From Rhynchopus sp. YZ270_cl-10 (taxonomy: Eukaryota), in contig OZ037843.1 of assembly GCA_964035575.1 (NCBI GenBank), forward strand, positions 1-64,000: DNA of 64,000 nucleotides, read 5' to 3'. The position numbers and the translations under genes were made by a program. How positions within the stretch are numbered: position 1 is the first letter of the stretch; every line of letters begins with the position of its first letter. Of this stretch, positions 1-34,845 are shown piece after piece. The notes below the pieces were generated by a model. That model ran no database searches, was not told where the DNA came from, and saw only the letters and a list, made by a program, of their open reading frames with translations.

Positions 1-3000
1 GGTTTGCGGGTTTGCGGGTTTGCGGGTTTGCGGGTTTGCGGGTTTGCGGGTTTGCGGGTTTGCGGGTTTGCGGGTTTGCGGGTTTGCGGGTTTGCGGGTT
101 TGCGGGTTTGCGGGTTTGCGGGTTTGCGGGTTTGCGGGCGGTTTGCGGGTTTGCGGGTTTGCGGGTTTGCGGGTTTGCGGGTTTGCGGGTTTGCGGGTTT
201 GCGGGTTTGCGGGTTTGCGGGTTTGCGGGTTTGCGGGTTTGCGGGTTTGCGGGTTTGCGGGTTTGCGGGTTTGCGGGTTTGCGGGTTTGCGGGTTTGCGG
301 GTTTGCGGGTTTGCGGGTTTGCGGGTTTGCGGGTTTGCGGGTTTGCGGGTTTGCGGGTTTGCGGGTTTGCGGGTTTGCGGGTTTGCGGGTTTGCGGGTTT
401 GCGGGTTTGCGGGTTTGCGGGTTTGCGGGTTTGCGGGTTTGCGGGTTTGCGGGTTTGCGGGTTTGCGGGTTTGCGGGTTTGCGGGTTTGCGGGTTTGCGG
501 GTTTGCGGGTTTGCGGGTTTGCGGGTTTGCGGGTTTGCGGTTTGCGGGTTTGCGGGTTTGCGGGTTTGCGGGTTTGCGGGTTTGCGGGTTTGCGGGTTTG
601 CGGGTTTGCGGGTTTGCGGGTTTGCGGGTTTGCGGGTTTGCGGGTTTGCGGGTTTGCGGGGTTTGCGGGTTTGCGGGTTTGCGGGTTTGCGGTTTGCGGG
701 TTTGCGGGTTTGCGGGTTTGCGGGTTTGCGGGTTTGCGGGTTTGCGGGTTTGCGGGTTTGCGGGTTTCGGGTTTGCGGGTTTGCGGGTTTGCGGGTTTGC
801 GGGTTGCGGGTTTGCGGGTTTGCGGGTTTGCGGGTTTGCGGGTTTGCGGGTTTGCGGGTTTGCGGGTTTGCGGGTTTGCGGGTTTGCGGGTTTGCGGGTT
901 TGCGGGTTTGCGGGTTTGCGGGTTTGCGGGTTTGCGGGTTTGCGGGTTTGCGGGTTTGCGGGTTTGCGGGTTTGCGGGTTTGCGGGTTTGCGGGTTTGCG
1001 GGCTTTGCGGGTTTGCGGGTTTGCGGGTTTGCGGGTTTGCGGGTTTGCGGGTTTGCGGGTTTGCGGGTTTGCGGGTTTGCGGGTTTGCGGGTTTGCGGGT
1101 TTGCGGGTTTGCGGGTTTGCGGGTTTGCGGGTTTGCGGGTTTGCGGGTTTGCGGGTTTGCGGGTTTGCGGGTTTGCGGGTTTGCGGGTTTGCGGGTTTGC
1201 GGGTTTGCGGGTTTGCGGGTTTGCGGGTTTGCGGGTTTGCGGGTTTGCGGGTTTGCGGGTTTGCGGGTTTGCGGGTTTGCGGGTTTGCGGGTTTGCGGGT
1301 TTGCGGGTTTGCGGGTTTGCGGGTTTGCGGGTTTGCGGGTTTGCGGGTTTGCGGGTTTGCGGGTTTGCGGGTTTGCGGGTTTGCGGGTTTGCGGGTTTGC
1401 GGGTTTGCGGGTTTGCGGGTTTGCGGGTTTGCGGGTTTGCGGGTTTGCGGGTTTGCGGGTTTGCGGGTTTGCGGGTTTGCGGGTTTGCGGGTTTGCGGGT
1501 TTGCGGGTTTGCGGGTTTGCGGGTTTGCGGGTTTGCGGGTTTGCGGGTTTGCGGGTTTGCGGGTTTGCGGGTTTGCGGGTTTGCGGGTTTGCGGGTTTGC
1601 GGGTTTGCGGGTTTGCGGGTTTGCGGGTTTGCGGGTTTGCGGGTTTGCGGGTTTGCGGGTTTGCGGGTTTGCGGGTTTGCGGGTTTGCGGGTTTGCGGGT
1701 TTGCGGGTTTGCGGGTTTGCGGGTTTGCGGGTTTGCGGGTTTGCGGGTTTGCGGGTTTGCGGGTTTGCGGGTTTGCGGGTTTGCGGGTTTGCGGGTTTGC
1801 GGGTTTGCGGGTTTGCGGGTTTGCGGGTTTGCGGGTTTGCGGGTTTGCGGGTTTGCGGGTTTGCGGGTTTGCGGGTTTGCGGGTTTGCGGGTTTGCGGGT
1901 TTGCGGGTTTGCGGGTTTGCGGGTTTGCGGGTTTGCGGGTTTGCGGGTTTGCGGGTTTGCGGGTTTGCGGGTTTGCGGGTTTGCGGGTTTGCGGGTTTGC
2001 GGGTTTGCGGGTTTGCGGGTTTGCGGGTTTGCGGGTTTGCGGGTTTGCGGGTTTGCGGGTTTGCGGGTTTGCGGGTTTGCGGGTTTGCGGGTTTGCGGGT
2101 TTGCGGGTTTGCGGGTTTGCGGGTTTGCGGGTTTGCGGGTTTGCGGGTTTGCGGGTTTGCGGGTTTGCGGGTTTGCGGGTTTGCGGGTTTGCGGGTTTGC
2201 GGGTTTGCGGGTTTGCGGGTTTGCGGGTTTGCGGGTTTGCGGGTTTGCGGGTTTGCGGGTTTGCGGGTTTGCGGGTTTGCGGGTTTGCGGGTTTGCGGGT
2301 TTGCGGGTTTGCGGGTTTGCGGGTTTGCGGGTTTGCGGGTTTGCGGGTTTGCGGGTTTGCGGGTTTGCGGGTTTGCGGGTTTGCGGGTTTGCGGGTTTGC
2401 GGGTTTGCGGGTTTGCGGGTTTGCGGGTTTGCGGGTTTGCGGGTTTGCGGGTTTGCGGGTTTGCGGGTTTGCGGGTTTGCGGGTTTGCGGGTTTGCGGGT
2501 TTGCGGGTTTGCGGGTTTGCGGGTTTGCGGGTTTGCGGGTTTGCGGGTTTGCGGGTTTGCGGGTTTGCGGGTTTGCGGGTTTGCGGGTTTGCGGGTTTGC
2601 GGGTTTGCGGGTTTGCGGGTTTGCGGGTTTGCGGGTTTGCGGGTTTGCGGGTTTGCGGGTTTGCGGGTTTGCGGGTTTGCGGGTTTGCGGGTTTGCGGGT
2701 TTGCGGGTTTGCGGGTTTGCGGGTTTGCGGGTTTGCGGGTTTGCGGGTTTGCGGGTTTGCGGGTTTGCGGGTTTGCGGGTTTGCGGGTTTGCGGGTTTGC
2801 GGGTTTGCGGGTTTGCGGGTTTGCGGGTTTGCGGGTTTGCGGGTTTGCGGGTTTGCGGGTTTGCGGGTTTGCGGGTTTGCGGGTTTGCGGGTTTGCGGGT
2901 TTGCGGGTTTGCGGGTTTGCGGGTTTGCGGGTTTGCGGGTTTGCGGGTTTGCGGGTTTGCGGGTTTGCGGGTTTGCGGGTTTGCGGGTTTGCGGGTTTGC

Positions 3001-5527
3001 GGGTTTGCGGGTTTGCGGGTTTGCGGGTTTGCGGGTTTGCGGGTTTGCGGGTTTGCGGGTTTGCGGGTTTGCGGGTTTGCGGGTTTGCGGGTTTGCGGGT
3101 TTGCGGGTTTGCGGGTTTGCGGGTTTGCGGGTTTGCGGGTTTGCGGGTTTGCGGGTTTGCGGGTTTGCGGGTTTGCGGGTTTGCGGGTTTGCGGGTTTGC
3201 GGGTTTGCGGGTTTGCGGGTTTGCGGGTTTGCGGGTTTGCGGGTTTGCGGGTTTGCGGGTTTGCGGGTTTGCGGGTTTGCGGGTTTGCGGGTTTGCGGGT
3301 TTGCGGGTTTGCGGGTTTGCGGGTTTGCGGGTTTGCGGGTTTGCGGGTTTGCGGGTTTGCGGGTTTGCGGGTTTGCGGGTTTGCGGGTTTGCGGGTTTGC
3401 GGGTTTGCGGGTTTGCGGGTTTGCGGGTTTGCGGGTTTGCGGGTTTGCGGGTTTGCGGGTTTGCGGGTTTGCGGGTTTGCGGGTTTGCGGGTTTGCGGGT
3501 TTGCGGGTTTGCGGGTTTGCGGGTTTGCGGGTTTGCGGGTTTGCGGGTTTGCGGGTTTGCGGGTTTGCGGGTTTGCGGGTTTGCGGGTTTGCGGGTTTGC
3601 GGGTTTGCGGGTTTGCGGGTTTGCGGGTTTGCGGGTTTGCGGGTTTGCGGGTTTGCGGGTTTGCGGGTTTGCGGGTTTGCGGGTTTGCGGGTTTGCGGGT
3701 TTGCGGGTTTGCGGGTTTGCGGGTTTGCGGGTTTGCGGGTTTGCGGGTTTGCGGGTTTGCGGGTTTGCGGGTTTGCGGGTTTGCGGGTTTGCGGGTTTGC
3801 GGGTTTGCGGGTTTGCGGGTTTGCGGGTTTGCGGGTTTGCGGGTTTGCGGGTTTGCGGGTTTGCGGGTTTGCGGGTTTGCGGGTTTGCGGGTTTGCGGGT
3901 TTGCGGGTTTGCGGGTTTGCGGGTTTGCGGGTTTGCGGGTTTGCGGGTTTGCGGGTTTGCGGGTTTGCGGGTTTGCGGGTTTGCGGGTTTGCGGGTTTGC
4001 GGGTTTGCGGGTTTGCGGGTTTGCGGGTTTGCGGGTTTGCGGGTTTGCGGGTTTGCGGGTTTGCGGGTTTGCGGGTTTGCGGGTTTGCGGGTTTGCGGGT
4101 TTGCGGGTTTGCGGGTTTGCGGGTTTGCGGGTTTGCGGGTTTGCGGGTTTGCGGGTTTGCGGGTTTGCGGGTTTGCGGGTTTGCGGGTTTGCGGGTTTGC
4201 GGGTTTGCGGGTTTGCGGGTTTGCGGGTTTGCGGGTTTGCGGGTTTGCGGGTTTGCGGGTTTGCGGGTTTGCGGGTTTGCGGGTTTGCGGGTTTGCGGGT
4301 TTGCGGGTTTGCGGGTTTGCGGGTTTGCGGGTTTGCGGGTTTGCGGGTTTGCGGGTTTGCGGGTTTGCGGGTTTGCGGGTTTGCGGGTTTGCGGGTTTGC
4401 GGGTTTGCGGGTTTGCGGGTTTGCGGGTTTGCGGGTTTGCGGGTTTGCGGGTTTGCGGGTTTGCGGGTTTGCGGGTTTGCGGGTTTGCGGGTTTGCGGGT
4501 TTGCGGGTTTGCGGGTTTGCGGGTTTGCGGGTTTGCGGGTTTGCGGGTTTGCGGGTTTGCGGGTTTGCGGGTTTGCGGGTTTGCGGGTTTGCGGGTTTGC
4601 GGGTTTGCGGGTTTGCGGGTTTGCGGGTTTGCGGGTTTGCGGGTTTGCGGGTTTGCGGGTTTGCGGGTTTGCGGGTTTGCGGGTTTGCGGGTTTGCGGGT
4701 TTGCGGGTTTGCGGGTTTGCGGGTTTGCGGGTTTGCGGGTTTGCGGGTTTGCGGGTTTGCGGGTTTGCGGGTTTGCGGGTTTGCGGGTTTGCGGGTTTGC
4801 GGGTTTGCGGGTTTGCGGGTTTGCGGGTTTGCGGGTTTGCGGGTTTGCGGGTTTGCGGGTTTGCGGGTTTGCGGGTTTGCGGGTTTGCGGGTTTGCGGGT
4901 TTGCGGGTTTGCGGGTTTGCGGGTTTGCGGGTTTGCGGGTTTGCGGGTTTGCGGGTTTGCGGGTTTGCGGGTTTGCGGGTTTGCGGGTTTGCGGGTTTGC
5001 GGGTTTGCGGGTTTGCGGGTTTGCGGGTTTGCGGGTTTGCGGGTTTGCGGGTTTGCGGGTTTGCGGGTTTGCGGGTTTGCGGGTTTGCGGGTTTGCGGGT
5101 TTGCGGGTTTGCGGGTTTGCGGGTTTGCGGGTTTGCGGGTTTGCGGGTTTGCGGGTTTGCGGGTTTGCGGGTTTGCGGGTTTGCGGGTTTGCGGGTTTGC
5201 GGGTTTGCGGGTTTGCGGGTTTGCGGGTTTGCGGGTTTGCGGGTTTGCGGGTTTGCGGGTTTGCGGGTTTGCGGGTTTGCGGGTTTGCGGGTTTGCGGGT
5301 TTGCGGGTTTGCGGGTTTGCGGGTTTGCGGGTTTGCGGGTTTGCGGGTTTGCGGGTTTGCGGGTTTGCGGGTTTGCGGGTTTGCGGGTTTGCGGGTTTGC
5401 GGGTTTGCGGGTTTGCGGGTTTGCGGGTTTGCGGGTTTGCGGGTTTGCGGGTTTGCGGGTTTGCGGGTTTGCGGGTTTGCGGGTTTGCGGGTTTGCGGGT
5501 TTGCGGGTTTGCGGGTTTGCGGGTTTG
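1..5527 (+). repeat. Telomere-like 8-bp tandem array (GGGTTTGC)n, ~690 units, G-rich strand on +
   Basis: Continuous GGGTTTGC from base 1. The few indel variants I see (~137, 540, 660, 690, 766, 804, 1003) are confined to the first ~1 kb. The array ends abruptly at GGGTTTG|TGAAGCCCC. Confidence 0.95.
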
Positions 5528-6734
5528 TGAAGCCCCAAGTGGTTGAGGTGGGCCTCGCCGGTCACACCATTGGCAAACTCCGTCATGGCCTCCTGCGACC
5601 CCAGCACCTGCACCAGGCGGTTCGACACCTCCACTGCTGTGTCATACAGCTGCTTGCGCATTGCCCTCACGTCCGGCTGCGTGTCGTGGTCCCAGAGGTG
5701 TAGTGCCACATAACCACAATCATTAGTAGACACGTTGGGGATGCGTTTAGCTCCAAACTTCGCCAGAGTCGCGTCCACAGACACCGCCTGCTCTGTATAC
5801 GCAGGAGCGTTCACGTTTGCGCACCCACCGGTCAACGCAAACGGGGACAAGCTTACCGGGTGCTCCGGATCAGCAGGGGCAGGGCGCAGGTCCCAGGGCG
5901 TCACCGCTCGCCACAACAACGACAGCAAGACCAGTAGGGACACCGCCAGCATGCCAAATGCCATCCCGATCCTACGAGTCCACCTGCGTGCTGCCACACG
6001 GCGCACCTCCAAGAGAAGAACCCAGCCAAGTGGGCGCGCGACGCCGACCAGTGCCACAAAACCCGCCAAACAACCACCTGCGGACCATGCAACCCACACC
6101 CACTCGGCTGCACGCACCGACAACTGACCCACCCCCATCACACTGGCTCTCACCAAGCTGGCAGCCACTCGGATCCCTCCGGTCCATCGGTGCACTCGCT
6201 CGCTCGCCCCTTCCAGCCACCGCCACCCCCTGCGTGCGCGGCACAGTCCCCGCAGCAGACCCACCCCCAGCACCTCCGCGTCCCGAAACAGCGCACAACC
6301 CAAAGCATGTGGCGCTGACCTCCCAAGCTCAGACCCCACAAAAACCAGAACCCAGATGGCCACACACTGCAAAGCACCTCTCAACGCATCGGCGACCCTG
6401 ATCCTGCGGAAAACTGGGTGCGCTGCCGGGGAGGGCGGACGATTGCAGGGCGCCTTGCGCCGACGGAGCCTGCCCGCCTGTGACTTGGTCCAGTTCAAGG
6501 ACCGGTGTCCTCGTCACGTCCTCCTGGTCCTCCTGCCCACCAGCCACAAAATGAGATGACTGAGGGTAGGGGCGCGTCTGTCCTTCCACAGATCCAGGAC
6601 CGCGAACGACACAAACACTCCCCACTCAGGTGCCTCGGCTACCCAGCAGGGGTCAGGCTGACGCAAGGAGGTGAAGACCTCCCAGAGGTTGCACCACCAG
6701 TCGAACCAAAACTCTATCTGTACACACCCCTTTT
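5528..6734 (-). mobile_element. Antisense fragment of family-A retrotransposon (distal part), capped by the repeat array
   Basis: Reverse complement of 9293-10493 with a 6-bp insertion (~5876) and at least one substitution. It breaks inside the first OTU-like domain, where the array begins. Confidence 0.95.
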
Positions 6735-6737
6735 TCT

Positions 6738-6840
6738 GGGGTTCATTTTTTTTTACAAGGGGTTCATTTTTTTTTACAGGGGTTCATTTTTTTTTACAAA
6801 GGGGTTCATTTTTTTTTACAGGGGTTCATTTTTTTTTACA
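6738..6840 (+). repeat. 5 copies of the ~20-22 bp unit GGGGTTCA(T)9AC(A)1-3 at the 5' end of N1
   Basis: Units start at 6738, 6759, 6779, 6801 and 6821. Confidence 0.9.
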
Positions 6841-6938
6841 CAAAAAACTATGTTAAGACGAAATCCTACCGATGTGCCTACATGGGGCGTCCCCCGTCAG
6901 TAGTGCGCCAGATGAGGGGCACGAAGCGAAATGCGGTG
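6821..6938 (+). ncRNA. Degenerate HDV-like ribozyme core in the N1 5' end
   Basis: P3 GCC/GGC (6876-78/6886-88), L3 TACATGG, P1' GTCCCCC (6889-95), P1.1 AC/GT, P4 GTGC(G)CC/GGGCAC, J4/2 GCGAA (6926-30). P1 pairing with GGGGTTC has two mismatches. Confidence 0.5.
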
Positions 6939-7440
6939 AAAGGTGCAGGCCTGTTTTGCAGCAGGTCTGGAGAGTTGTGGCAACTCGTCTGCTGAGCGTG
7001 TGAAGTATCAAGGCAGAGGTTCGCTGTTCAAGTAAAACCTACCCTGGTCATCCTCTGCCTGTCTTGGTTTCTGTCGTGATTGTTTGTGTTTGTGGGCGGG
7101 ATCAGATGGGTGGAGGGTGTTTACTTTGTGTTTAGCTCGGAGAAGTGGCTTACCCGCCCACTCTCTGTTATTTATTCAGTGTCATTTTTTCATTCATCCC
7201 CAAAGTTTGTAGACAGAGTCAAGACCACCTTGGCCAAAAGGGTTTTTTCACCACACTTTTCTTTTGCTTCCATTCGTGGAAGCGTTTGCTTTTCTTCTGT
7301 TCCTGGCCTGACGTGTGTTCAACAGGTGTGCTATTTTTACCAAGTGGAATCCATTTTTCTTTTTCCAGGGGAGGCACTAAAACAAACCATTCTGCAGACA
7401 ACAAAGCAAAGGCAATGTGTTTTTTATTCTCCCTATTACA

Positions 7441-7638
7441 GGGGACCATTTTTTTACAGGGGACCATTTTTTTACAGGGGACCATTTTTTTACAGGGGAC
7501 CATTTTTTTACAGGGGACCATTTTTTTACAGGGGACCATTTTTTTACAGGGGACCATTTTTTTACAGGGGACCATTTTTTTACAGGGGACCATTTTTTTA
7601 CAGGGGACCATTTTTTTACAGGGGACCATTTTTTTACA
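7441..7638 (+). repeat. 11 exact copies of 18-bp GGGGACCATTTTTTTACA (5' terminus of A1)
   Basis: Period 18 from 7441 to 7638. Each unit begins with the ribozyme P1 strand GGGGACC. Confidence 0.95.
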
Positions 7639-7773
7639 CATTACAACACACTTGTCCTTTCTTTTTACCCTCCCTCCCTCCCCCTTTCCTTTGTTTTATT
7701 GTGAGCCTTGTACGCCTCCACGGGGCGGTCCCTGGGCAACGGTTGAGGAGTGCAGGCCGGCGAAGCGCAAGGC
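7621..7773 (+). ncRNA. HDV-like self-cleaving ribozyme at the 5' end of A1
   Basis: P1 GGGGACC(7621-27)/GGTCCCT(7727-33) with a G1-U wobble. P2 GCCTTGTAC(7705-13)/GCGCAAGGC(7765-73) with one mismatch. P3 GCC/GGC; L3 TCCACGG; P1.1 CC/GG followed by GCAA; P4 CGGTT/GGCCG; J4/2 GCGAA with putative catalytic C7761. Confidence 0.85.
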
Positions 7774-7827
7774 GTAGTGTGTTTTGTCCTTCTTTGTTTT
7801 CGTTTTTTGGTTTTTGCTTTTTTAAAA

Positions 7828-16893
<9,066 letters not shown>

Positions 16894-17209
16894 GTCTTCT
16901 TTTTTTCCTTTTTTTGCCCCAGAAGTGTGACGCCTGTGTATTCAAATTGATCAAAAAGAATAAAAAACAAACACATAATGCAGTTTCTTGTTTTGTATAA
17001 AACTCTGTTGGCTCTACCGTACTCTTCGCCCGCCTTTTATACAAAACTTGAAACACCGACCATTTTTGGTCATCATTTTTTCCTTTTCATTTTTCCATTT
17101 CCTTTTTCCTTTTCCATTTCCTGTTCATTTTATTGTCTTTATTGTCTTCTCCATTTCTTCCTTTTTCCTTTCTATTCTCATAAAAAACTAGTCCAAGTAC
17201 AAAAAAGAG

Positions 17210-17240
<31 letters not shown>

Positions 17241-17241
<1 letters not shown>

Positions 17242-17764
17242 ACCCCTTTTGCCACACCCGCATCATCACACAGCCACTCTGTCCTTCTCGCCCCGCAAGG
17301 CTGACCCCGAACACCAGCATACCTCGCTCACCACCCCCTAGGTTGTTGTCGCTGATGTTGTTGCTGCGTCTGCTGTTGATGTTGGTGCTGCTGTTGGACC
17401 TGCTGTTGGAACTGCTGCTGCAGAAGTCTTTGGAACTGCAGTTGAAACTGCTGTTGTGCCTGCTGTTGGAACTGCTGCTGGAACTGCTTTTGGAGACGCT
17501 GTTGGAACCGCTGCTGCAGAAGTCTGTGGAACTGCTGTTGAAACTGCTGTTAAGCCTACTGTTGGAACTGCTGTTGGACCTGCCGTTAGAGCTGCTGCCG
17601 CAGAAGTCCTTGCTGATGAAACTGCTGTTGTGCCTGTTGCTGGAACTGCTTTTGGAAACGCTGTTGGAACTGCTGCTGCAGAAGCCATTGGAACTGCTGT
17701 TGAAACTGCTGTTGTTGAGCCTGCTGTTGGAACTGCTGATGGACCTGCCGTTGGAGCTGCTGCT
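17241..17764 (-). mobile_element. Proximal part of the antisense family-A copy (5'-truncated in the Ser/Asn region)
   Basis: Reverse complement of 9302 upstream to ~8865 with rearranged VNTR units. Contiguous with 5528-6734 across the TSD. Confidence 0.9.
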
Positions 17765-18492: not shown

Positions 18493-19188
18493 GAGGACCA
18501 CACTTTTTTTACAGGTGGTTTTTTTTGTAAGGACCTCACACACTGGGCAGGCGGTCAGCTATTCGCTTCCCGCGGGGCGTTCGCGTGCGCGCTTCGCGCG
18601 CCCGCTCACGGTAACGTGTACAAAAAAACCTCACTCGTGCCTTCATGAACTGGCCTGTAAAGTGGCCTGTAAAAAGTGGTGTTTTTGTGGTAAACGCCAG
18701 ATGGTCAAAAGAGTGATCTGAGCATATTCCCCAGGTATAACTGGTACTCAAAAAGTTCATTAACGAAGGAATCTTGCACTTTTGACCATCACATATTAGA
18801 TGTGTTTTTTCAGGTTTTTCAATGCACTTTCCTGTACTGGGAAGCATGCCACAAGTGTCATGTTTTACAAGGCAAAAATGACCAAAAAAGCTGATTTTTG
18901 GCCGAATGCCACATGTCATTTGGCAGTCCAATTTCTGAACACGACTGAAAAAAAATTTTTTTTTGGGCCTCAATACCCCCAAACAACACGTTAAGCCCAA
19001 AAAATTCACTTTTGGATGAGCAACTATTTATTTAAAAAAATCGATTTTTTGGTCAAATCCCCTCTGGTGGTGAGGGGGTGTGTGTGTGTGTGTGTGGGTG
19101 TGTGTGTGTGTGGGTGTGTAGTGTGTGTGGTGTGGGTGGCGCACATCTCTATAGTAAAGACTAAAAAACTAAGGTTTTTTAGGATTTT
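18493..19188 (+). mobile_element. Partial non-autonomous element N3 (5' part shared with N2)
   Basis: 18513-19188 is a diverged direct copy of 29991-30678. It begins GAGGACCACAC(T)7ACA, resembling the 5' unit of A. Confidence 0.6.
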
Positions 19189-19558
19189 CTGTACAATATT
19201 GGATCTGTGCACAGGGGGCATTACCCCTCTAACAGCAAGGGTAAAGTTGAAAATAAAGGAAAGTGCTTCTTTGAGGCACTATGACACTTTGACAATCTAT
19301 TTTTTGAAAGTAAAGTAAAAAGAAGTGCATCCTGGTGGCACTTTGACACTGGCAAACATTCTATTCTATTGTGTCTACTGTTTCTATTCTAAATTCTAAA
19401 ACACTGGCTGGGCGACCTCCTGGGAACACCTCACACAAAAATCAAAATGGTAAATGACAAAAATAAAAATGGGGAAAACCACGTTTTCGTACACATATTC
19501 TTTGCTTTGCTTTGCTTTGGTTTGCTTAGTTTTGTGTTGTTTTCTTTGTATCTCTTGT

Positions 19559-22500
19559 TTATTGAAAGTCCTCATCAACCGCGTCGACATCGATGGAGCA
19601 AGCCGCAGCACAGGAAGTGGCAGACGGGTGGGCGGAGGGTGCGGTGTGGCCACTTCCTGTCTGGGCGTTCATTGCTGCTGATGCGGTGGAGGAGTCGGAG
19701 GTGGACTGTGCGGCGGCGATGGGGGACTCTTCATCGCTCTCCATCATCACCTCTGCGGCAGTGTAGCGTCGTCCGAAAGGGGATGTGGGCTCAGCAGAAC
19801 AGGAAGTGGCAGACGGGTGGGCGGAGGGTGCTGTGTGGCCACTTCCTGTCTGCGATGTTGTAGCGGGTGCCGTGGTGGCATCGACCCCATCTGGGTCTCG
19901 CCCTCGGGACCCTGGATCCAAAGCTAGCGACACCGTCACCGTAGGGTCCCAATCATTCGCCCTATCCCGAAAGCTCGAGTCGCTCATTGCCCTGTTGAGG
20001 CAGTCCAGTGTGGACCGGATCTTCTTCTTTGCCGCCTCGGGAGCCTCCCAATTCAGCGCCTTCCAGGTGTGGAGCCATTCCCGAAACGCCCAGAAGCACC
20101 CCTCTGTGCCGAGTCGCGTATCCACCGCCCCTTGCCTGTGGTGGAAGGCCTCCACCCACTGCTGGACGTTCCGCATCACCGGCTGCCCCATTGACAGGCA
20201 GGGGTAGAAACCCCCTTTCGACACCGTGTACCCCCACTGCAGCTTCCGTGCGATCTCCTCCACCTTCTGCCGCGCTTCGCCCTCCACATCGTCCAGGCGA
20301 AAAGAGTCCGTCGGGGTCTCAGCGTCCGCCTTCGGGTTCTCGACCGCGGGGGTGGACTGCCTGGCCTTACGCACCCTGTTGTCCCGTTCTGTCGTCACCC
20401 TGGCCTGGGAGACCCCCTTCCTACGAGTCTGTGTGTCCCCGAGCTCGATACCCTGCTTTGCGGTACCTGGTTTCGCGGTTCCAGGCTTCTTGTCCTCCCC
20501 AGTGGACGGAGCAGCACGCGGCAGGAAGGCCTGAGGGAGGAGACAGGACGCAGTGCACAGCTTGGAGAAAGCCATGTCCTCCTCATCCCTCAAATCGCCA
20601 TGCGAGCGTTCAGCGTCCCTCAGCAGCAAAAGACACCGCTCAGACGTGGCGTGCAGGAGGATGGTCTCCCGTCCCTGCATGGACTCTTCGTTGCCGATGT
20701 TGCGGCGCCCCTCAGCCTCCTGTTCCTCGCACGAGGCAAACCCTAACCGGAACCTCAGACGGCTCTCCTCTCTCCTCTGCGATGCAGTGAGGCTCTGGGC
20801 TTGCCTTCGGTTCAAGGCACCTGCCTTCGTCAGCTCACTCGTCTTCGCCGATCCAGGCTGCGCTCCAGCGGGGCTGCGGACACCCATCGCCTTCTCCTGC
20901 ATCGTCTCACGTCGCTGCTCCGACGATTTGACCTTAGCAGAAACGAAGCGAGATGCACTCTCGGATCTGGCCCGGCGCAAGAGGACCTCCGCAGCCTCCC
21001 GTTCCTGCCTCTGGCGTTCCTCCGACAACCTCCTCCGCTCTGCCGACCGCCGGCGTAACTCTTTCCCCTCCTCTGGTGGGACTTCACCCTCAACCCCACC
21101 CTCGAAGCCCGATTCCCTATCCTCAGGTTCCTCGGCAAAGCGGGGTGGCGTCACCGGCTGGGGAGAAGCGTCAGTCTGGTGCAGGTCTTGCATCGTAGCG
21201 CCAGCCTGCTCCCAATCTCCTTGAGAAGAGGGCGGCATAGGAGGAGTCTCATCAGGGTGTGCAGGGTGACGGACCGGTGTCGCTCCTGTCTGAGTCTGAT
21301 CCACATCCATCTCCTCCTCCTTGACCCCGGCTTGGCGCATCTCAGCCTCATGGCGCTTCACCATCTCAGCTACCTCCAGTTCCTCTTCCCTTTCCCATTG
21401 GTCTTTCAGGGCACCCTCATGAACCCCCGCTCGTACACACCACCAAAGCCGCAGGAGACCCCTCTCAGTTTCATGGAACCGCATAAGGTCACGAACATGG
21501 GGAGCACCGTTGTCAATCGGGTCCTCATTCCCACGCCTGGTCCCTCTGGGCCCGTCTGGCTGGTCATCCATAGGGACCGGGGGCCCAGCACAAGTCACTT
21601 GGTCCTGGCTGACTCGGCACGCCACGCAACAGCTCGTGCAGCAAGTCGTACAGAAATGTGACTCTGCTTCCGCTCCTTCGCTGTGCCCATCGCATCCCCT
21701 GCAAATGAACGGGCCTGTCGTAGGCTCCCAAAGGCATGTGTCGGCACGTAGAGGCTTCGCTGCGCAGAGGATCTTGACTGCATCGACGTTCAGCGAGAGG
21801 GTCTCAAAGTGCCCGGCGATTACTCCAGTAAAAACCAGTCCCAGGGCTCCGTGGGGGGCACATAGGCGAGGGACATAGATTTTGGGCACGGCGCCCGGGG
21901 AGACAAGGATTATGGTCATCTCGAGTACCTCACATAAGCCCATGATCATCGTTTCATCCGCCCACGTGGTGTCGTCTCTGCATCCTTCTCGCAATTTCCG
22001 TTCCATCCACGATCGACGGTCTCCAGTGCGCGCAGCCAGCTTAGCGTCACGAAGAACTTGGGCAACTGCCAGTTTCCGGAGGAGCGATGACGAATGGTAG
22101 GGTGTATTCGGAGCGAAGTTCGCGGCCAAGGCGTCAAACAGGCAGTCACCCACAGTGAAGCTGTTCCTCGTACGCGAGCCAAGAAATTCTGCCTGCCTGT
22201 CCACCGCCCAAGACTTGAAGACATTCATATCTGTCAGAGAGTGGGTCGGGGAGAGGACCAGCTTCTCTAAGTTGTGTAGAAAAGATGAGGCCTCCTGATC
22301 GTCCTCCCTCGGTGTCGCCTGCGGGAATGTGGGTGACCTGGCTCTCTCAGCGCCCTTCATGTGCGTGTCGTGGGAAGTGTGCGGAGTAGGGGACGGAGCC
22401 GATGAGCGCACGTTACCACTGAGGATGTCAGCTAAGCCGTTCTGAGACGCCGGACAAAAGGGGGAGTCCCTTGAGCACAAATCGCACACCAACCTCTCGC

Positions 22501-22690
22501 ACCCCTCAGCACATTTGAAGTGCGCCTCGCAACCGTCGATGGGGCGAACGCAACGCCTACACTGGTACACCGTCCCCACCGGTGCAGACTGTGCTGCGGG
22601 GATACGCTTCATCATCGCCACAGACTTGCAGAAACGCTTCGACTTCGGCGCAGGTATCGGTTCCATGCCGAGGATTTCTCCCTTGAGTGC
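19559..22690 (-). CDS. Retrotransposon B polyprotein, C-terminal part after a -1 frameshift (Cys finger, OTU-like, Cys finger, C-terminal domain)
   Basis: The frame upstream of ATG 22666 reads ALKGEILGME, aligning with A's ALQQHILSFE. GDCLFDAL..TWADE..GHFE. GGFYPCLSMG..FHHRQG matches the A C-terminus. Confidence 0.8.
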   Translation of the reverse strand, partial: ALKGEILGMEPIPAPKSKRFCKSVAMMKRIPAAQSAPVGTVYQCRRCVRPIDGCEAHFKCAEGCERLVCDLCSRDSPFCPASQNGLADILSGNVRSSAPSPTPHTSHDTHMKGAERARSPTFPQATPREDDQEASSFLHNLEKLVLSPTHSLTDMNVFKSWAVDRQAEFLGSRTRNSFTVGDCLFDALAANFAPNTPYHSSSLLRKLAVAQVLRDAKLAARTGDRRSWMERKLREGCRDDTTWADETMIMGLCEVLEMTIILVSPGAVPKIYVPRLCAPHGALGLVFTGVIAGHFETLSLNVDAVKILCAAKPLRADTCLWEPTTGPFICRGCDGHSEGAEAESHFCTTCCTSCCVACRVSQDQVTCAGPPVPMDDQPDGPRGTRRGNEDPIDNGAPHVRDLMRFHETERGLLRLWWCVRAGVHEGALKDQWEREEELEVAEMVKRHEAEMRQAGVKEEEMDVDQTQTGATPVRHPAHPDETPPMPPSSQGDWEQAGATMQDLHQTDASPQPVTPPRFAEEPEDRESGFEGGVEGEVPPEEGKELRRRSAERRRLSEERQRQEREAAEVLLRRARSESASRFVSAKVKSSEQRRETMQEKAMGVRSPAGAQPGSAKTSELTKAGALNRRQAQSLTASQRREESRLRFRLGFASCEEQEAEGRRNIGNEESMQGRETILLHATSERCLLLLRDAERSHGDLRDEEDMAFSKLCTASCLLPQAFLPRAAPSTGEDKKPGTAKPGTAKQGIELGDTQTRRKGVSQARVTTERDNRVRKARQSTPAVENPKADAETPTDSFRLDDVEGEARQKVEEIARKLQWGYTVSKGGFYPCLSMGQPVMRNVQQWVEAFHHRQGAVDTRLGTEGCFWAFREWLHTWKALNWEAPEAAKKKIRSTLDCLNRAMSDSSFRDRANDWDPTVTVSLALDPGSRGRDPDGVDATTAPATTSQTGSGHTAPSAHPSATSCSAEPTSPFGRRYTAAEVMMESDEESPIAAAQSTSDSSTASAAMNAQTGSGHTAPSAHPSATSCAAACSIDVDAVDEDFQ

Positions 22691-25600
22691 GAGTCTGTGA
22701 AGGAGAGGGGGCTGAGGAACCAGTCCTGTGAATCGTCATCAACCGGACCTGCGAAAACGAAGAGCGCCTCCCGGGCCCTTTTGGTCGGCACCAGAATTTG
22801 GGGACGCATGCGATCACAGATGATCACAATGGTGCACTCTAAAGCCTCTCCCGCGCCAGCAAGTGCCACCATATCCATCCAAGTGCGGGCGTCCGATCGG
22901 TCGCTGCTCTTTGTGCCCATGTACTCCAGCCAGTTCTTCACAGGAATGGAGATGCAATCCGCGAGGTCCGGTCGGTCATTTTTTACAATCTCCACAGCAC
23001 GTCTCCGGAGTTCCTTATGACTCGTCTCTCCGTTGATGTCTTCAATCAAAAGATCCTTCTTGAGATCCACCGAGCATGCGGTCAGCAGTGCATCGAACCC
23101 GCTGTCACCTCTCAGGATTTTGTAACGCTGGGGGTGTGTGAGCCCCAGTCGTGCAGCCTGCGTCTCTGCGTCAGGGCATGCGCCATCTGCCATCATGCGG
23201 AGGATGTTCCAATACGCAGCAGGTGTCTCCCCCCCGGCCTGACGCCCCGCTCGGAAAGGATTGTGTCGGAAGACCGTTCCACCCACCTTCTTCTCTGGCA
23301 TTGAGAAGTAGTCGCGCGGTTCATGCGCTATTTCGGCTTCCTCGACCTCCACAGACGGTTCACGCTCCGGTAAGTTGCTGACAGGGTTGCTGAGGTATGT
23401 GGAATCCATCTGCCTGAGATCTTCTTCCGCGGGACGCTGAACTGAGTCGGCGCTGTGGGGCAAGTGTTCATTGATGTCTGTGCAAAGCACGCCTCGGGCA
23501 ACAAAGGACTTACCCACGGCTGCTTGGTATGCGCACGACATATGCTCCCGTAGCCTCGCCTCAGTCGGTGCATCGCCGCCAGGGTCCTTTGTGCACGCAA
23601 GCCCGGCCACCTGGCTGATGACCCGGTTGCACTCTTCCGATGCCCCACCGAAGGCCTCAAACACCATGGGGGAGAAGAGCACGTCCGCACCTCTGCAATC
23701 CTCCAGGTGTTTCTTCCGCTTCTCCTCCCCGGCCACTTTGGCTGCGTACTCGCTATGTTGTGCCGCTCGATGCACGTAAGTGGGGAGGGTCGGAGCTACT
23801 ACTGTGAAATCCAAAGCTCTTCGCCGGGTCTCCATGATGCCAGATGGGAGGAACACGTCTGCCGGCCTCTTCCCAGACTCAAAACCCAAGTCTTTCTCCA
23901 AAGAGGGGTTGAGCCCCGCCGCATCCGCTGCCAAGAAAAAGGAGTGCTTCAGGGCGTCATGCCGTTCGGTTCTGTGACCCATGTAGCCGCAAGAGAAAGT
24001 GTGGTCCCCGAAAGCATCCATGCACACCCCATCTCTGCTACATCCGTTGCACTCACTCTTAGGCTTGTGCACTGCCACACCCAGACGAAATCGGGCTGCC
24101 CCCGCGAAGTATGCAGAGGGGATGGAATTGGGGGGCGAGGCCGTGGCGGTCAGCCAGGTGCCAGACATAGGGAGTTGCAGAGAAAGCAGGCGTGCTCGAT
24201 CCCGGTCGCTGGTGGCCACTCGCTTCAGCTCTGCTGCTTGTTCGTCCACGATGGCTGATGACAGCTGCTGTTGCACCACAGCCTTGGAAGGCATCCTATC
24301 CCCATCGATGTGCTGCGACGCAGGTACTCTGGTGTTGTACGCCTCGGCTGCATTCTTCCACCTTGCCTTGTCCCATTCGAACTTCGGGTCCAGCTGCTGG
24401 GCAAGCTTGAAAGACCCAGCTTGCGATGCCAGGGCTGCAGCGGGCCAATGGTCGACTGTGCGACGAATGCCTAAACCCCCTATGGCGATGGGGAGGGCAG
24501 CCTGCAGGCGGGCCTGTGCTGGCAAGGCCCCGTGCTCATCATGCAGGATCGTCGCCAAACACCTGTCCACCTCCGCATCAAAATCCCGGAGGTAGCCCTC
24601 CCCTAGGTCCACACATGATATTCCACGCATGTAGAATACCATTTTGCAAAATCCCTCACAAAAGCGCAAGATGTAGTACGCATGCTGTGAGTCTTTGAGG
24701 TTTCTGAGGGCGTTCAAGTTCAACTTCGACTTATCTAGCTTGCTCTGCATGTACTTCCTGCAGTGCTCTGCTGTGCCGATGGGGATGCCCAGGAAGTCGA
24801 AGTTCTGGTTGTGGAGGGAGAAGCCGTCGTTGTGCCCGTCAGACGCATCCCGGATGGTGAACCCCCTATTACGCAGATCTTCCGCAGAGTCGCCCGCCAA
24901 CGTCACAAGTTCGCATTTTGAACGGTTGACTTTTAGACCAAGGCGGCTGCTCGAATCCACTAGGGCATCGTAAGCGGCCAGGACTGCCTCAGGATCCCCC
25001 CGAATGCAACCATCGTCCAGGTACCAAATAGACCCGTCGAGGCCCCTGTTCGCGCTCAACCTTTCTGTCATCTCAGCAATCGCCAAAGAGAAGAGGATAG
25101 GGCCTAGTGGGTCACCTTGTTGGACCCCACATTGGGACTCAAGTGTAGCCTCACCATAAAATAGGGAGGTGTGGCCGGCGTAGCACCACCTCACCCACGT
25201 GGAGATCTCAGGGATGTGCCGTTCAACTGCACTGATGAAGGTGGCCCTATCTACAGTGTTGAAAGCATTGTGATAGTCCACCTTCAGGATCACCTTGTCC
25301 ATCCCCAGGTACTTCCGTGCATACTGTGCCACCACTGCAGTGGCAGCCTCCGAGCCCCGCGGCGTTGAAACCCCCACCTGGTTCCCCTTGCGGAAAATTT
25401 CAGCCGCCCGTTTCCGTAGCCTGTTTGCCAGAATCTTGCCAATCAACCGGCGAGTCACGTCTCCCACTGCGATCGGACGCACATCCTCAGGCTTGTCTTT
25501 TGAGACCTTCCTGAGGGCTACCAGCTTGGCTCCGGCAAAGAAAGGCGCGACCTCTCGGTGAGCTTTGCCTTGTGCCAATGAGGACAACACCTTCGTTAGA

Positions 25601-28437
25601 GCAGCGAGCGTGCCAGGGGTATGCTTCTGGTTGCACAGGACACGGAGGAGTGATCCTGTCAGGTTTGACGGACCACCTGCAGTGGCTCGCGGCATGCTGC
25701 TGATTGCTTCCATAACCTCCTTGGTGGTGAAATCGGCGGGCCCAGAGGGGTTCCTCACATTCTCATGTATAACCGATCGGATCTCCGTGGGGTGTTTGCC
25801 CTTCAGCTTCTCCAGAGTTGCGGGTCCATGTGGTGCGAGTCCGTCACTGGTGAGGGCTGTCAGGGCCTGGCCCGGAAGTCCCGTTGCTGCCTTCAAACGG
25901 GAGCGTTTCTGGCGCGCCTCCAAAGTGTCCCCTGGTGTCCACACAGGCTGGTCCTGTACCTCATCCAAAGCGTTGGACCAAAGCTCCCCCCAGCTCCCAG
26001 CGTCCCACCTATCCAGGTCCTTTTTCCAGGAGTTGAAACAACGTCGATCTGTTACCTTCGTCCTGCGTCCGTGCGCACGGTCCCTGTGTAAGACAGTGAA
26101 GAACAGGGCAAACTTCGTCCAGGCACAAGGGTCCTGATGCACCAGGATCTCCTGCAGTACCCTCTGGAAGATGAGGGTGTAGCGGTGGGCCAGGTCAGGT
26201 GGGCAGGTTCCTTTCAGCTTGAACCGTGTGGTCCCAATCTCCTGCAAAGAGGGCATGCCAGCGGGGCGGGCGCCGCGGAGGCTGTCTATGGATGGGGCTG
26301 GTACCTCTTTCATTATAGCCGAACACGCCTGGCACGCGCTCTGTGAACGTTGTAGGAGGGCCGTGCACTCGTCTCCGACGCATCTCCTAAAACCGAAGTA
26401 GGACAAGATGTGATCTGGAATGTACTCAGCCGCTCTCGTATGGAGCTTCAAATGATTTAGGAGGCCGGACCGTGTGAACGACTTCACATCTGATTGTGAA
26501 ACTATGCCACCCTTGCAACCCTCCACTGGGCAAAAGCAGAAGTCCTCCTCCGGTTTACCAAGACAGGATTCCAGATCCTCACCCGAGGGGTCCGATGTAG
26601 ACAACGGGCACTGGTCCAGGGCCAAGGGGTTCAGCTTCGCTCTGACCGCTTTCTTCAGCAAGGCCGACGATATGTCCCGAAAGTCCCTCTCATCTACCGG
26701 ACGGATAGCCTCGTAATGGCCATTGCACAGCGCCACGGCTACCGTCGTGCGACCCATCAACTCCTTGGCGCGCTTTTCCTCGTTCTTTATGTTCCCCTCA
26801 CCTGGCGCGATCAGGACGATCGGGGTCGCTCCAGCCTGAACGATGACGATGTTGAGGTTGCGCCTCACCGCGAAGAGACGCAGGGCAAGGTGGTCCAACT
26901 TTGCAGATCCTCTGACCCCATCAATCCAACGAGTGAGCGCATCGCCGGACTTGAGGACACTCCTCATCGCACGTTCTAGCGTTACCGCCAAGTCGCCGAT
27001 GTCTTTCCGGTCGGTGGAGTAGGACGGCGGAGCGGAGCGCCAACCCGATGCGTGAATGGCCGCTAGGCTGCAGTCGTGTACAAAATTATTTGGTACACGT
27101 TGGGCATGGGCTTCCCCCAGGATTCTGTCCACTTCCAGAGCATGATCTCCGTATGTCGCGGACAGCGTTGCATCGGCACATCCACCAACTAACTGGTCGT
27201 GCGGGATGTATTCCTCAGGGAACTCCCAGTCGTCAACCTCATCGCGCAATCCCCAAGCCCAGTCGTCGTCACCTTCCACGAACTCATCATCCCATACAGC
27301 GACCTCCTCATCACCCACATCCTCTGCCAGGTGAGCAACCTCGTCATCCCAATGGGCGGCCTCCTCAACTTTCACAAATCGAGGTGTTGGTGGGCGCAGG
27401 TCCCAGGGCGTCACCGCTCGCCACAACAGCGACAGCGAGACCAGTAGGGACATCCCGATCCAGAGTAGCGGGCCATCAGCCTGGATCGCAGATCCGACCA
27501 GCGACACCGCAAGCCTCAACAGGCGCCACTCCCTTCGCACTCGGCACAGTGCGCTCAGAAAAAGGCGTGCAACCGGAGAGGGCGGACGAGTGTGCGCCTT
27601 GCGCCGATGGAGCTTGCCTGCCTGCGTCTTGATCCAGTTCAAGGACCTGTACCCCCGTCGCGTCTTCCTGGTCCTCCTACGCATCAGCCACAAAATGTAA
27701 TGACTGAGGGTAGGGGCACGTCTGTCCTTCCACAGATCGAGGACTGCAAACGACACAAACACACCCCACTCAGGTGCCTCGGCTACCCAGCGGGGGTCTG
27801 GTCGGCGAAGAGAAGAAAGGCGTTCCCAGAGGATGCTCCACCAGTCAAACCCAAGCCCATGTTCTGCACGCCCCATGTGAACATTGGGGGTGAGAACAGT
27901 ACTCCACATACGCATCGACACACAGCCACCTAAAGTTTCAGGCCCCACAAGGCTGCCCCAGAACACCAGCATACCTCCGCTGTCACCATGTGGGCTGTTG
28001 TTGGAGTTGCTGCTGTTGTAGTCTCTGAAGGTGTTGCTGTTGTTGCGGTTGCAGCTGCTGCTGTTGTTGCTGCTGTTGTAGCCTCTGATGGTGTTGCTGC
28101 TGGTGTTGCTGCTGGTGCTGCCGCTGGTGCTGCTGTTGTTGCATTTGCTGCTACTGCTGCTGCTATCACTGGTGCTGCTGTTGTAGCTGTTACTGCCGTT
28201 ACTGCTAATGTTGTTGTTGTTGCTGCTGTTGTGGCCTCTGATGGTGTTGCTGCTGGTGCTGCTGCTGGTGCTGCTGCTGGTGCTGCTGTTGTTGCAGTTG
28301 CTGCTGCTGCTGCTGCTATCACTGGTGCTGCTGTTGTTGCTGTTACTGTAGCTACTGCTAAAGTTGCTGTTGATGCTGCTGTTGTAGCCTCTGATGGTGT
28401 TGCTGCCGGTGTTGTTGCTGGTGCTGCTGCTGTTGCG

Positions 28438-28470
<33 letters not shown>

Positions 28471-29529
28471 ATCGCTGCTGCTGCTGTTGCTGGGACTGTT
28501 GTAATTGTGGCTTCTGCTGTGTTGTACGTCTAAATAGCTGCATACACCCGTATCACATCGCACACCTGGCTCTCCACCTCTACACCAGTGTCTGCTGTTG
28601 TTGCTGGAGTTGTTGTTGTTGCTGCTATCAAAGCTGCAGCCGCTTAGGTTGTTGGGCACCAAAGGCCTCTTTTTGGGGTAATAATGGGGGGGAATGGGGG
28701 GACTGTTTCTGCTGGCGCTGCAGAAGTTGCTGTTGCAGCAGTTGCTGTTGCTGTTGGTGTTGGTGTTGCCATTGCTGTATTTGATGATGAAGCTCTTGTT
28801 GCAGCCGTTGCAGTTGCAGTAGTTGGAGCTGTTGCTGCTGCTCTTGCTGCTGTTGCTGAGGCAGTTGCTGTTGTTGTTGCTGTGGCAGTTGCCATTGCTG
28901 TTGTTGCTGTTGATGTTACTCTTGTTGCAGCTGTTGCATTTGCTGTAGGTGGAGCTGATGCTGTTGCTCTTGTTGCTGTTGCTGAGGCAGATGCTGTTGC
29001 TGTTGCTGTTGCTGTAGTAGTTGCCATTGCTGTAGTTGCTGATGTTGTAGCTCTTGTTGCGACCGTTGCAGTTGCTGTAGGTGGAGCTGATACTGTAGCA
29101 CTTGCTGCTGTTGTTGCTGTTACTGCAGTAGTTGCCATTGCTGTTGTTGCTGTTGCTGTTGCTCTTGCTGCTGTTGCTGTAGCAGTTGCTGTTGTTGTTG
29201 CTGTTACTGCAGTAGCTGCCATTGCTGTTGTTGCTGTTGATGTTGCTCTTGTTGCAACCGTTGCAGTTGCTGTAGGTGGAGCTGATGCTGTTGTTCTTGC
29301 TGCTGTTGCTGTAGCAGTTGCTGTTGCTGTAGCAGTTGCTGTTGTTGTTGCTGTTACTGCAGTAGCTGCCATTGCTGTTGTTGCTGTTGATGTTGCTCTT
29401 GTTGCAACCGTTGCAGTTGCTGTAGGTGGAGCTGATGCTGTTGTTCTTGCTGCTGTTGCTGTAGCAGTTGCTGTTGTTGCTGCCCACCACCAACACACAT
29501 AGCACCCCCAGAAGGGCCTTCCTCCGCAT
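22612..29529 (-). CDS. Retrotransposon B polyprotein, N-terminal part (leader, OTU-like, Zn fingers, RT, REL, inactive OTU-like)
   Basis: MRRKALLG start; LVGG|C; HDCS..GHYE; CPVEGC..HLKLH; DVRPIAVGD, KVDYHNAFN, QQGDPLGP, YLDD (25012-23); CNGC..DHTFSC..RHD; RPAD..LDFT..FEAFG. Confidence 0.9.
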
Positions 29530-29678
29530 ATTTTTTTTTCTCCTTTGTGAAAAAGGAAAACAAGTTGGAAAATAAAGGGCAAGAAAAAGGAGAAAAAAGC
29601 ACTCAGACTGAACTGGCTTCTAAGCTCAGAGTGAGCAAAAATAAGCCTCAGAAACTGAGACCAGGTCTGCACGTTCTT

Positions 29679-29887: not shown

Positions 29888-29989
29888 TTTTTAAAAAAAC
29901 GTGTCCCCTTTTTTAAAAAAACGTGTCCCCTTTTTTAAAAAAACGTGTCCCCTTAACGTGTCCTTAACGTGTCCCCTTAACGTGTCCCC
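29871..29989 (-). repeat. Tandem 5' repeats of B, GGGGACACG(T)n(A)n, ~7 units of variable length
   Basis: Repeated ACGTGTCC(CC)T on the + strand. Confidence 0.85.
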
Positions 29990-29990
29990 T

Positions 29991-34828: not shown

Positions 34829-34845
34829 CTCGTTTATATTGCATA

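Follow-up and report, generated by a model that had tools for sequence, protein, structure and literature searches.

Genes and features of the locus

The window, that is the whole stretch of 64,000 nucleotides analysed (contig OZ037843.1 of Rhynchopus sp. YZ270_cl-10), opens with a telomere-like array and continues through nested retrotransposons and a second, short array into host genes:

1..5527, plus strand: (GGGTTTGC)n array, ~691 units, G-rich strand on plus
5528..6734, minus strand: older copy of CRE-type element A, 3′-truncated, 99.4% identity to 9293-10493
6725..6734, plus strand: CACCCCTTTT, the left target-site duplication of the full element A, which follows TGTACA (6719) without a gap
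6735..17240, plus strand: full-length CRE/SLACS-type non-LTR retrotransposon A, inside the older A copy
17241..17755, minus strand: right target-site duplication (17241-17250) and upstream part of the older A copy, 95.6% identity to 8788-9302
18513..19189, minus strand: second copy of the element-B-type 5′ leader, 92.5% identity to 29991-30680
19559..30675, minus strand: CRE-type element B (RVT_1, E 1.3e-20; cluster P0146)
30676..31279, plus strand: non-coding, internally deleted element A derivative, 93.7% identity to 7184-7434 and 86.4% to 16856-17221
31280..31349, plus strand: short internal (GGGTTTGC)8.8 array, 8.8 copies, 100%
31350..32010, no strand assigned: dispersed repeat cut at its own TGTACA site, 99.8% identity to the intact copy 38577-39240
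32845..33837, minus strand: intronless cathepsin B copy 1 (Peptidase_C1; 71% to Rhynchopus euleeides)
42712..43704, minus strand: cathepsin B copy 2, identical in protein sequence to copy 1
44610..62661, minus strand: two tandem DUF3638/DUF3645 genes (44610-52628 and 54643-62661)

The cathepsin B protein, with its 71% identity to that of R. euleeides, puts the host among the diplonemids. The host genes mostly point towards base 1, an orientation of which we made no use, no rule having been shown for diplonemids.

Element A carries an ORF (9223-16893; RVT_1, E 2.6e-15) and a poly(A) tail (17201-17240). It belongs to the 187-member cluster P0145, whose D. papillatum relatives are named ‘SLACS 132 kDa protein’; such ‘SLACS’ proteins of D. 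papillatum are the closest named relatives of the CRE elements found here. Residues 1866-1984 of its frame include C-x2-C, RH, PGD, DIT and K-x2-KH motifs, which we take to be a restriction-like endonuclease. With a reverse transcriptase followed by this endonuclease in a single long ORF, a poly(A) tail and the 10-bp duplication CACCCCTTTT, element A fits the CRE/SLACS/CZAR clade. SLACS and CZAR in the strict sense are inserted in spliced-leader RNA genes, whereas element A of the window has inserted, next to TGTACA, into the reading frame of another CRE copy. A further 5′ end of element A lies inside element C (P0196). The ORF of element B is split over two frames (22612-29619 and 19559-22735) and encodes a reverse transcriptase and, unlike the clade, an OTU-like domain; no poly(A) end of it is left within the window and its 3′ end is missing. 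The outer end of the leader copy at 18513-19189 adjoins TGTACA at 19190. Telomere-specific retroelements of the MoTeR or SART/TRAS type sit in the repeat in one fixed orientation. Here element A lies on the plus strand, old A and B lie on the minus strand, and only the short A derivative adjoins an array, by its poly(A) end.

A telomere-like array caps a broken retrotransposon

The array was first noticed in a sequence-only reading, which placed its right edge at 5540; the array is real and ends at 5527. TRF gave a period of 8, 690.8 copies and 99% matches, and 683 units are exact copies of GGGTTTGC. It is thus a short tandem repeat with G/C strand asymmetry, long and homogeneous as in a telomere. 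That its C-rich strand runs 5′ to 3′ towards the apparent end was confirmed: the minus strand reads (CAAACCCG)n towards base 1.

Seven variants interrupt it, all of them indels (at 128, 531, 650, 683, 754, 793 and 992) and all within the first 1010 of the 5527 bases (chance 6.8e-6). The 1-base deletions make up 6.0% and 4.6% of the summed depth in run X1 versus 0% and 0.016% in run X3. Because indels of this kind are common in one run and nearly absent in another, base 1 is probably a contig tip, and both the clustering and the X1 error type fit the earlier suggestion that variants confined to the first ~1 kb mark a low-coverage tip. A natural degenerate zone is disfavoured, since the indels are of the X1 error type and the variant GGGTTTAC deduced from internal arrays elsewhere is never present in the window array. 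In three arrays the variant sits close to the break, at unit 1, unit 3 and unit 2 respectively, but three cases are too few to build on.

The junction of array and retroelement (J1) lies at 5527/5528. On the minus strand GGGGCTTCA is followed directly by CAAACCCG, where the intact element reads GCTC onward. The break in the older A copy falls within the ORF and corresponds to position 10493; the array joins it there without microhomology. A fold-back inversion as the origin of 5528-6734 was rejected: the segment belongs to an older copy that element A has split, and a 10-bp target duplication flanks the insertion.

A chimeric or fold-back long read might have put an ordinary telomere on the element in the wrong orientation. 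The flank is indeed a high-copy element, and the junction of the short internal array (J2, see below) is absent from the run contigs, with zero depth beyond 31353. Against such an artefact, the last ~4.5 kb of array next to J1 are without any error, which suggests several reads or correction, and the same junction type recurs in at least six other predicted proteins and seven contigs of two runs. We regard this explanation as very improbable.

A short internal array with both junction types

The array at 31280-31349 has non-telomeric DNA on both sides and is interstitial. To its left lies the A derivative, a 5′ leader piece fused to the 3′ UTR, with its poly(A) end directly against the array (poly(A) followed by GGTTTG at 31279/80). 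To its right, at J2, GGGTTTG is followed by TGTACA with at most 2 bases of microhomology; on the minus strand, TTGTACA is followed by CAAACCCG. The junction at 31349 had been cited as a second one of the same polarity. Its plus-strand orientation does match, but as the array is internal, with one junction of each type, it is not independent support. We rejected it as a second terminal junction since its left side adjoins a poly(A) tail.

An array of this kind raises the principal rival explanation: that telomeres here are ordinary, G-rich outward and of the TTTGCGGG type, and that 1-5527 is an internal tract inside which the assembly stopped. Such tracts could arise when a G-strand 3′ end is joined to a broken retrotransposon, or when G-rich telomeric RNA or DNA is copied onto a break. 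A single step would then suffice for J2: priming, through the 2-base microhomology, on a poly(A)-plus-G-tail RNA of the short A derivative. In the cited passages of PMC7367193, telomere-inserting elements of Magnaporthe likewise give rise to internal tracts and, at ends, capture DNA of internal origin.

The repeat at other break sites

The repeat was found at unrelated break sites: J1, J2, P0172, P0192, P0226, P0251 and P0267, the last of which ends inside the repeat. A break followed by a C-rich tract occurs in CRE elements on the sense strand at J1 and in P0172 (twice), P0192, P0251 and P0267, and on the antisense strand in P0226. Internal tracts in the predicted proteins measure 27-270 nt and both junction types recur. 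Internal arrays that carry both types are frequent in the genome, which keeps the capture of an ordinary telomere alive as a rival. The opposite arrangement, a C-tract followed by unrelated sequence, is the signature of ordinary healing. It was seen at the N-terminal tract of P0172 (where as many as 4 bases of microhomology with element B are in register), in P0276, P0282 and P0346, which are not tied to this organism, at a junction shared by runs X1 and X3 and at the junction of poly(A) and G-array.

Counts of the two types lean one way. Among the loose ends listed (12 of 33), contigs with a long unique flank read G-array then flank four times in X1 and three times in X3; flank then G-array was found in one contig per run, the same junction in both (7 versus 1 overall). 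When up to four poly(A)-type contigs are added, X1 gives 4 versus 5 (p 0.39 for ≤5/12 at even odds). For the predicted proteins the strand search was unequal, covering the C-frame in 50% representatives (best 150 of 1,595 matches) and the G-frame only at 440-1400 aa. If elements primed on the G overhangs of ordinary telomeres, poly(A) followed by the C strand would be expected, yet none of the 11 proteins with a C-strand run has it; poly(A) is followed by the G strand at 31279/80, with X1 depth over the poly(A). J1, J2 and P0226 are all compatible with one G-strand end, GGGTTTG. Since overhangs of T. brucei end at a template-fixed phase in the cited passage of PMC5700094, this suits the capture of ordinary ends.

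All four runs contain the repeat in great abundance: contig depths at base 31330 add up to 2.7-12.7 million, against ~90-130 for several single X1 contigs (contig depth gives no copy number). Together with the composite variant units among the loose ends listed, this would also fit an abundant satellite patched into breaks and targeted by elements, the real telomere being another repeat, e.g. TTAGGG. Several features speak instead for telomerase-type addition: an array perfectly homogeneous across the 4.5 kb that lead to a young break (99.4% copy), the strand asymmetry and the addition at many unrelated breaks. Moreover, a satellite does not predict the bias in junction type, and the precise phase of the insertions discussed below recalls TATE in telomeric repeats, as described in part of PMC2696322. 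The satellite explanation thus appears improbable.

A putative telomere-inserting element

Two recurrent ends adjoin the C-tracts. In six proteins end X comes after the tract, at one phase; in three (P0234, P0241 and P0308) end Y comes before it, at the phase that matches. A single DNA sequence translated in three frames accounts for the tails of P0192, P0241 and P0308, a fit given by 0 of 2000 shuffles; the tail of P0172 is near-identical to the X tails, and P0251 and P0255 could share the initial 7 bases. The peptides of both ends matched no Pfam family above the cut-off. Judging from these short ends in protein translations, they probably belong to a telomere-inserting, site-specific element, here called T, copies of which occur in tandem with short tracts in between. 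With two fixed ends that would each join the repeat at a single phase, T recalls TATE of Leishmania braziliensis, in the cited passages of PMC2696322; T differs in a duplication of 0-1 base versus TT and in that all known of it are short end sequences, among which no reverse transcriptase or recombinase was seen. For Diplonema papillatum, the portion of PMC10161547 cited reports TATE-like ORFs.

The order break, C-tract, end X was seen four times (P0172, P0192, P0251 and P0255). Its mirror, end Y, C-tract, break, is what ordinary telomeres would produce, and at least as often; it occurs in none of the three Y-bearing proteins, two of which run into X while one stops one residue on. The difference (0 versus 4) leans towards a C-rich strand that runs outward. 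The tail of P0282 has 5 residues in common with a stretch inside X, which is in keeping with a broken X that healed in the ordinary way.

A possible chromosome end of reversed polarity

We favour, at about even odds (roughly 50%), the reading that 1-5527 is a real chromosome end whose strands are opposite to those of known telomeres. The chromosome would have broken inside the retrotransposon and its free 3′ end been extended with (CAAACCCG)n, giving a recently healed end. The extension would most likely have been performed by a candidate telomerase with an RNA template of G-rich-strand sequence; granted reversed ends, we consider telomerase likely as this enzyme. A CRE reverse transcriptase that copies G-rich telomeric RNA onto ends would be the alternative candidate. 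The other tracts may be remnants of the same healing, later made internal by insertion of T in the tract or, as poly(A) followed by G-array at 31279/80 would suggest, by reverse transcription of element A onto a C-strand end.

The sequence-only reading had proposed extension by a C/A-rich strand if base 1 is a terminus. Junctions elsewhere, few and biased, lean that way (4 versus 0; 7 versus 1). That base 1 is a chromosome end is likely, with odds that we put at about even. Part of the argument comes from read reach. In a simulation with assumed read length and depth, the longest junction read stayed at ≤5.6 kb in 2.5% of trials (9.5-kb reads, 10x) or 2.4% (7-kb reads, 20x); 5.5 kb is therefore short for reads that enter a very long internal array. 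The argument fails for short reads at low depth (39% with 7-kb reads, 5x).

An ordinary telomere has on its side the polarity rule, stated as universal in the cited part of PMC6410037, by which described repeat telomeres have the G-rich strand 5′ to 3′ outward. It requires, however, a pure tract of at least 5.5 kb, 20 times the longest other internal tract (detection being biased against long ones), and the contig must have broken off at a length beyond which reads should usually extend. On balance we hold it to be a serious contender, but clearly short of even. Taken by itself, the GGGTTTGC motif has the T-then-G look of an ordinary telomere repeat.

Searches and significance

Our literature search found no diplonemid telomere repeat, no GGGTTTGC repeat and no reversed polarity. 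The string ‘telomer’ has 0 occurrences in the main text of two diplonemid genome notes; the longer PMC13598402 version counts 2. The supplements of two diplonemid papers have no row for TERT, and one TeloBase supplement gave no match; the TeloBase database and bioRxiv supplements may bear on novelty. A repeat scan of metagenomes gave 22 loci, and blastn showed no similarity of any of them to the window; there were 0 viral loci and 5 bacterial loci, unrelated by eye. The ESM Atlas gave no match at ≥0.9. Of the ORFs that extend across the array as far as base 1, exact look-up found 0 of 6; since it also found 0 of 4 controls, this is uninformative.

That the 3′ strand is G-rich counts as an invariable rule of repeat telomeres, on which explanations of G-quadruplexes, of POT1/CST binding and of C-strand fill-in are based. 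As a tentative extension of the reversed-end reading, all chromosomes of this diplonemid may be capped by C-rich (CAAACCCG)n at the 3′ end, through a telomerase with an inverted template. If this were true for all ends, the overhang, the end-binding proteins and the fill-in synthesis would all work on the strand opposite to that used in any eukaryote described so far. A strand-swapped eukaryote would make the G-rich rule a matter of history, not of necessity, and the need for a G overhang would become directly testable in cultured cells. If telomeres are ordinary instead, GGGTTTGC is still a candidate 8-bp diplonemid telomere repeat, not found described in the literature searched; with it come telomeric tracts often captured where retrotransposons have broken, and an element that probably inserts in telomeres.

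Comparison with known systems

The main array resembles the telomerase-type telomeres of kinetoplastids, of the same phylum Euglenozoa (T. brucei, TTAGGG; passages of PMC5700094): a kilobase array of a short repeat, homogeneous and strand-asymmetric, with G3 and a T run. It differs from them in its 8-bp unit GGGTTTGC and in the C-rich strand that runs 5′ to 3′ towards the apparent end. The short interstitial telomeric sequences at repaired breaks described in part of PMC6410037 fit 31280-31349 and the 27-270 nt tracts; the main array is unlike them, being at least 5.5 kb, pure and at an apparent contig tip. With the MoTeR arrays of Magnaporthe oryzae, broken retroelements that receive telomeres de novo (cited sections of PMC7367193), the locus shares truncated non-LTR elements capped by the repeat, short tracts between elements and seeds of 0-4 bases. 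MoTeRs all have the 5′ end outward and the ordinary polarity there, whereas the CRE copies here lie in both orientations, nested and capped the other way.

The array and the elements beside it

Bases 1–5527 of the window form an array (GGGTTTGC)n of 690.8 copies (99% match) with its G-rich strand on +. At 5527/5528 (junction J1) it adjoins an antisense retrotransposon copy broken within its ORF, with 0 bases of microhomology; the sequence-only reading, which had described a long G-rich array on + capping a broken retroelement at the window start, is confirmed here. All 7 deviations in the array are indels, at positions 128–992, and the remaining 4.5 kb are perfect (p 6.8e-6 for indel clustering). 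A short array of 8.8 units in the same orientation occupies 31280–31349. Its junction at 31349 (J2) had been proposed as a second one of like polarity; the orientation does match, but the array is internal and has one junction of each type, so J2 is not independent evidence.

The 26 kb right of the long array are a nest of CRE/SLACS-type elements, A and B:

5528–6734 plus 17241–17755, − strand: older element A copy, split by the full element A and capped by the long array
6735–17240, + strand: full element A, which has motifs of an RT and an endonuclease, ends in poly(A) and is flanked by a 10-bp target duplication beside TGTACA
19559–30675, − strand: element B
30676–31279: short element A derivative, internally deleted and non-coding, its poly(A) end directly against the short array

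On the far side of the short array lies a dispersed repeat cut at TGTACA. This palindrome coincides with three element junctions (6719, 19190 and 31350). It has 33 copies over the 58 kb that follow the long array; seven comparison hexamers have 1–20. It is possibly the CRE endonuclease site, at which elements would insert into one another; at the insertion site of the predicted protein P0196 it is not clearly visible. The internal deletion of the derivative occurred at a shared TTATTCTCCC, and the derivative meets the element B 5′ end via a short ATTTTT match. The element A ORF end is replaced by A-rich ACAACACC(A)n units (16630–16855), and the resulting poly-lysine tail differs from full-length cluster members. 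In element B the endonuclease is followed by an OTU-like protease domain (19559–22735; E 1.8e-6 in P0146, of the element B cluster), and the RT is preceded by long in-frame Ser/Asn repeats. Contigs that carry cluster members of the window elements reach about 2 Mb.

Nature of base 1

In contigs matching the short array, the shares of summed depth that show 1-base deletions or insertions are 6.0%, 4.6% and 3.0% for sequencing run X1, and for the same classes 0%, 0.016% and 0.038% for run X3. These indels behave as platform errors and are of the same kind as those in the first kb of the window. A substitution variant, inferred as GGGTTTAC, is present in internal arrays of 5 predicted proteins and was not found in the window array. 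Attribution of the first-kb variants to a low-coverage contig end is thus probably right, and base 1 is probably a contig tip, which can be either a chromosome end or a break within a long internal array. In simulations with assumed read lengths, the longest junction-crossing read fell within 5.6 kb in 0–2.5% of trials (9.5-kb reads, 10–40x) and in 39% (7-kb reads, 5x); this outcome speaks for a natural end but is no proof of one.

Repeat tracts in predicted proteins

The repeat has no stop codon (C strand, QTRKPANP; G strand, GFAGLRVC), and predicted proteins therefore record its junctions. C runs were found in 2 of 225 fetched proteins, P0172 and P0192, both among the 59 listed members (267 in all) of four CRE clusters sharing contigs. 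A C-frame search gave 1,595 matches, with exact runs of 41–90 aa in 9 of the best 150. Of these 9, P0251 and P0267 match element A of the window; P0234, P0241, P0255 and P0308 are linked to this organism through shared ends, and P0276, P0282 and P0346 are C-run proteins without a tie to it. A G-frame search, restricted to proteins of 440–1400 aa, gave a single match among 7,379 candidates, P0226, where a G run is followed by element B. Tracts in predicted proteins span 27–270 nt; no long-array ORF was found among the matches listed, so terminal arrays are not sampled via proteins.

Six proteins share a conserved end X after the C tract, in a single phase, and three a conserved end Y before it at matching phase. 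A single DNA sequence, translated in three frames, accounts for three of the X tails; 0/2000 shuffles do so. X and Y are probably the ends of one undescribed element, T, which would insert at a precise position of the 8-mer repeat, with some copies in tandem, much as TATE does in Leishmania telomeres (PMC2696322). The ends, with two X families, occur in P0172, P0192, P0234, P0241, P0251, P0255 and P0308.

Polarity of the array

Insertion of T into a terminal array would leave a short inner tract, giving the order Y-C-break with ordinary polarity and break-C-X with reversed polarity. There were four cases of break-C-X and, among 3 Y-bearing proteins, none of Y-C-break. These counts carry bias: search effort differed between the two strands, some members are hidden by clustering, and the upstream start required for ORF calling favours break-then-C junctions. 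Among raw contigs with long unique flanks (12/33 rows listed), 4 in X1 and 3 in X3 are of the reversed type and 1 per run, at the same junction, of the ordinary type; with as many as 4 poly(A)-type contigs counted in, X1 could become 4 vs 5. We regard it as very improbable that the array junction is an artefact. Other elements are known to prime on a G overhang, their poly(A) then meeting the C strand. Such priming would here give poly(A)-C junctions, judging from MoTeR orientation (PMC7367193). Poly(A) adjoins the G strand at 31279/80, and was found against the C strand in 0/11 C-run proteins.

Our preferred reading, held at a probability of about 0.5, is that the chromosome would have broken inside the older element A copy and its 3′ end been extended with (CAAACCCG)n. 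If so, the extender would rather probably be a telomerase with a G-rich template, a candidate suggested by array purity, addition at unrelated breaks and in-register seeds of 0–3 bases (none at J1, CA at J2, CCG at P0226); alternatively, a CRE reverse transcriptase may have copied G-rich telomeric RNA. The system would resemble a telomerase-type telomere in healing, in internal remnants and in having a telomere-inserting element. Reversed polarity, if true (about even odds), would break a rule thought universal.

Several results count against reversed polarity, and it is possible that an ordinary telomere tract was captured internally. The ordinary signature, a C tract followed by unrelated DNA, is seen in the first tract of P0172 (where in-register microhomology reaches at most 4 bases), in P0276, P0282 and P0346 and at one contig junction. 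J1, J2 and P0226 are all compatible with one G-strand end phase; in T. brucei overhangs the terminal phase is set by the template (PMC5700094). The prior for reversed polarity is low, because as a rule the G strand runs outward at telomeres (PMC6410037) and an exception was not found in the literature searched. Nor was the 8-mer found there as a telomere repeat, including the available supplements of PMC10161547 and PMC10767889. Two diplonemid genomes have 118 (PMC13598402) and 88 (PMC12171722) chromosomes, and telomeres are unmentioned in the portions available of these genome notes.

That the 8-mer array is a satellite seems improbable. Short variant inserts lie within the repeat in both runs (loose ends on 31308–31347), pointing to a composite unit, satellite or subtelomeric, with the 8-mer as its base. 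The odds on healing by extension and on its three rivals are judgements and were not computed. One metagenome contig holds three identical module copies with (GGGTTTGC)8 (loci L003, L004 and L006); the module is probably the terminus of some bacterial mobile element and has no relation to the window.

Host genes

An intronless cathepsin B gene (32845–33837) is 71% identical to that of Rhynchopus euleeides, 65–68% to Flectonema neradi and 63–64% to two Diplonema species, so the organism belongs to the diplonemids. Its region is duplicated at 99.8% (32099–33871 and 41966–43738), and nine near-identical proteins in the collection, on contigs of four sizes, indicate a recently expanded family. A small ORF rich in cysteine and histidine, with a Gln-rich tail, has three or four copies at 34657–37719, of which one is inverted and another truncated; no Pfam family scores above cut-off. 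Finally, 44208–64000 is a near-perfect 10-kb tandem duplication (99.4%) carrying an intronless 2,672-aa DUF3638/DUF3645 gene, hence two DUF3638 genes in the window.
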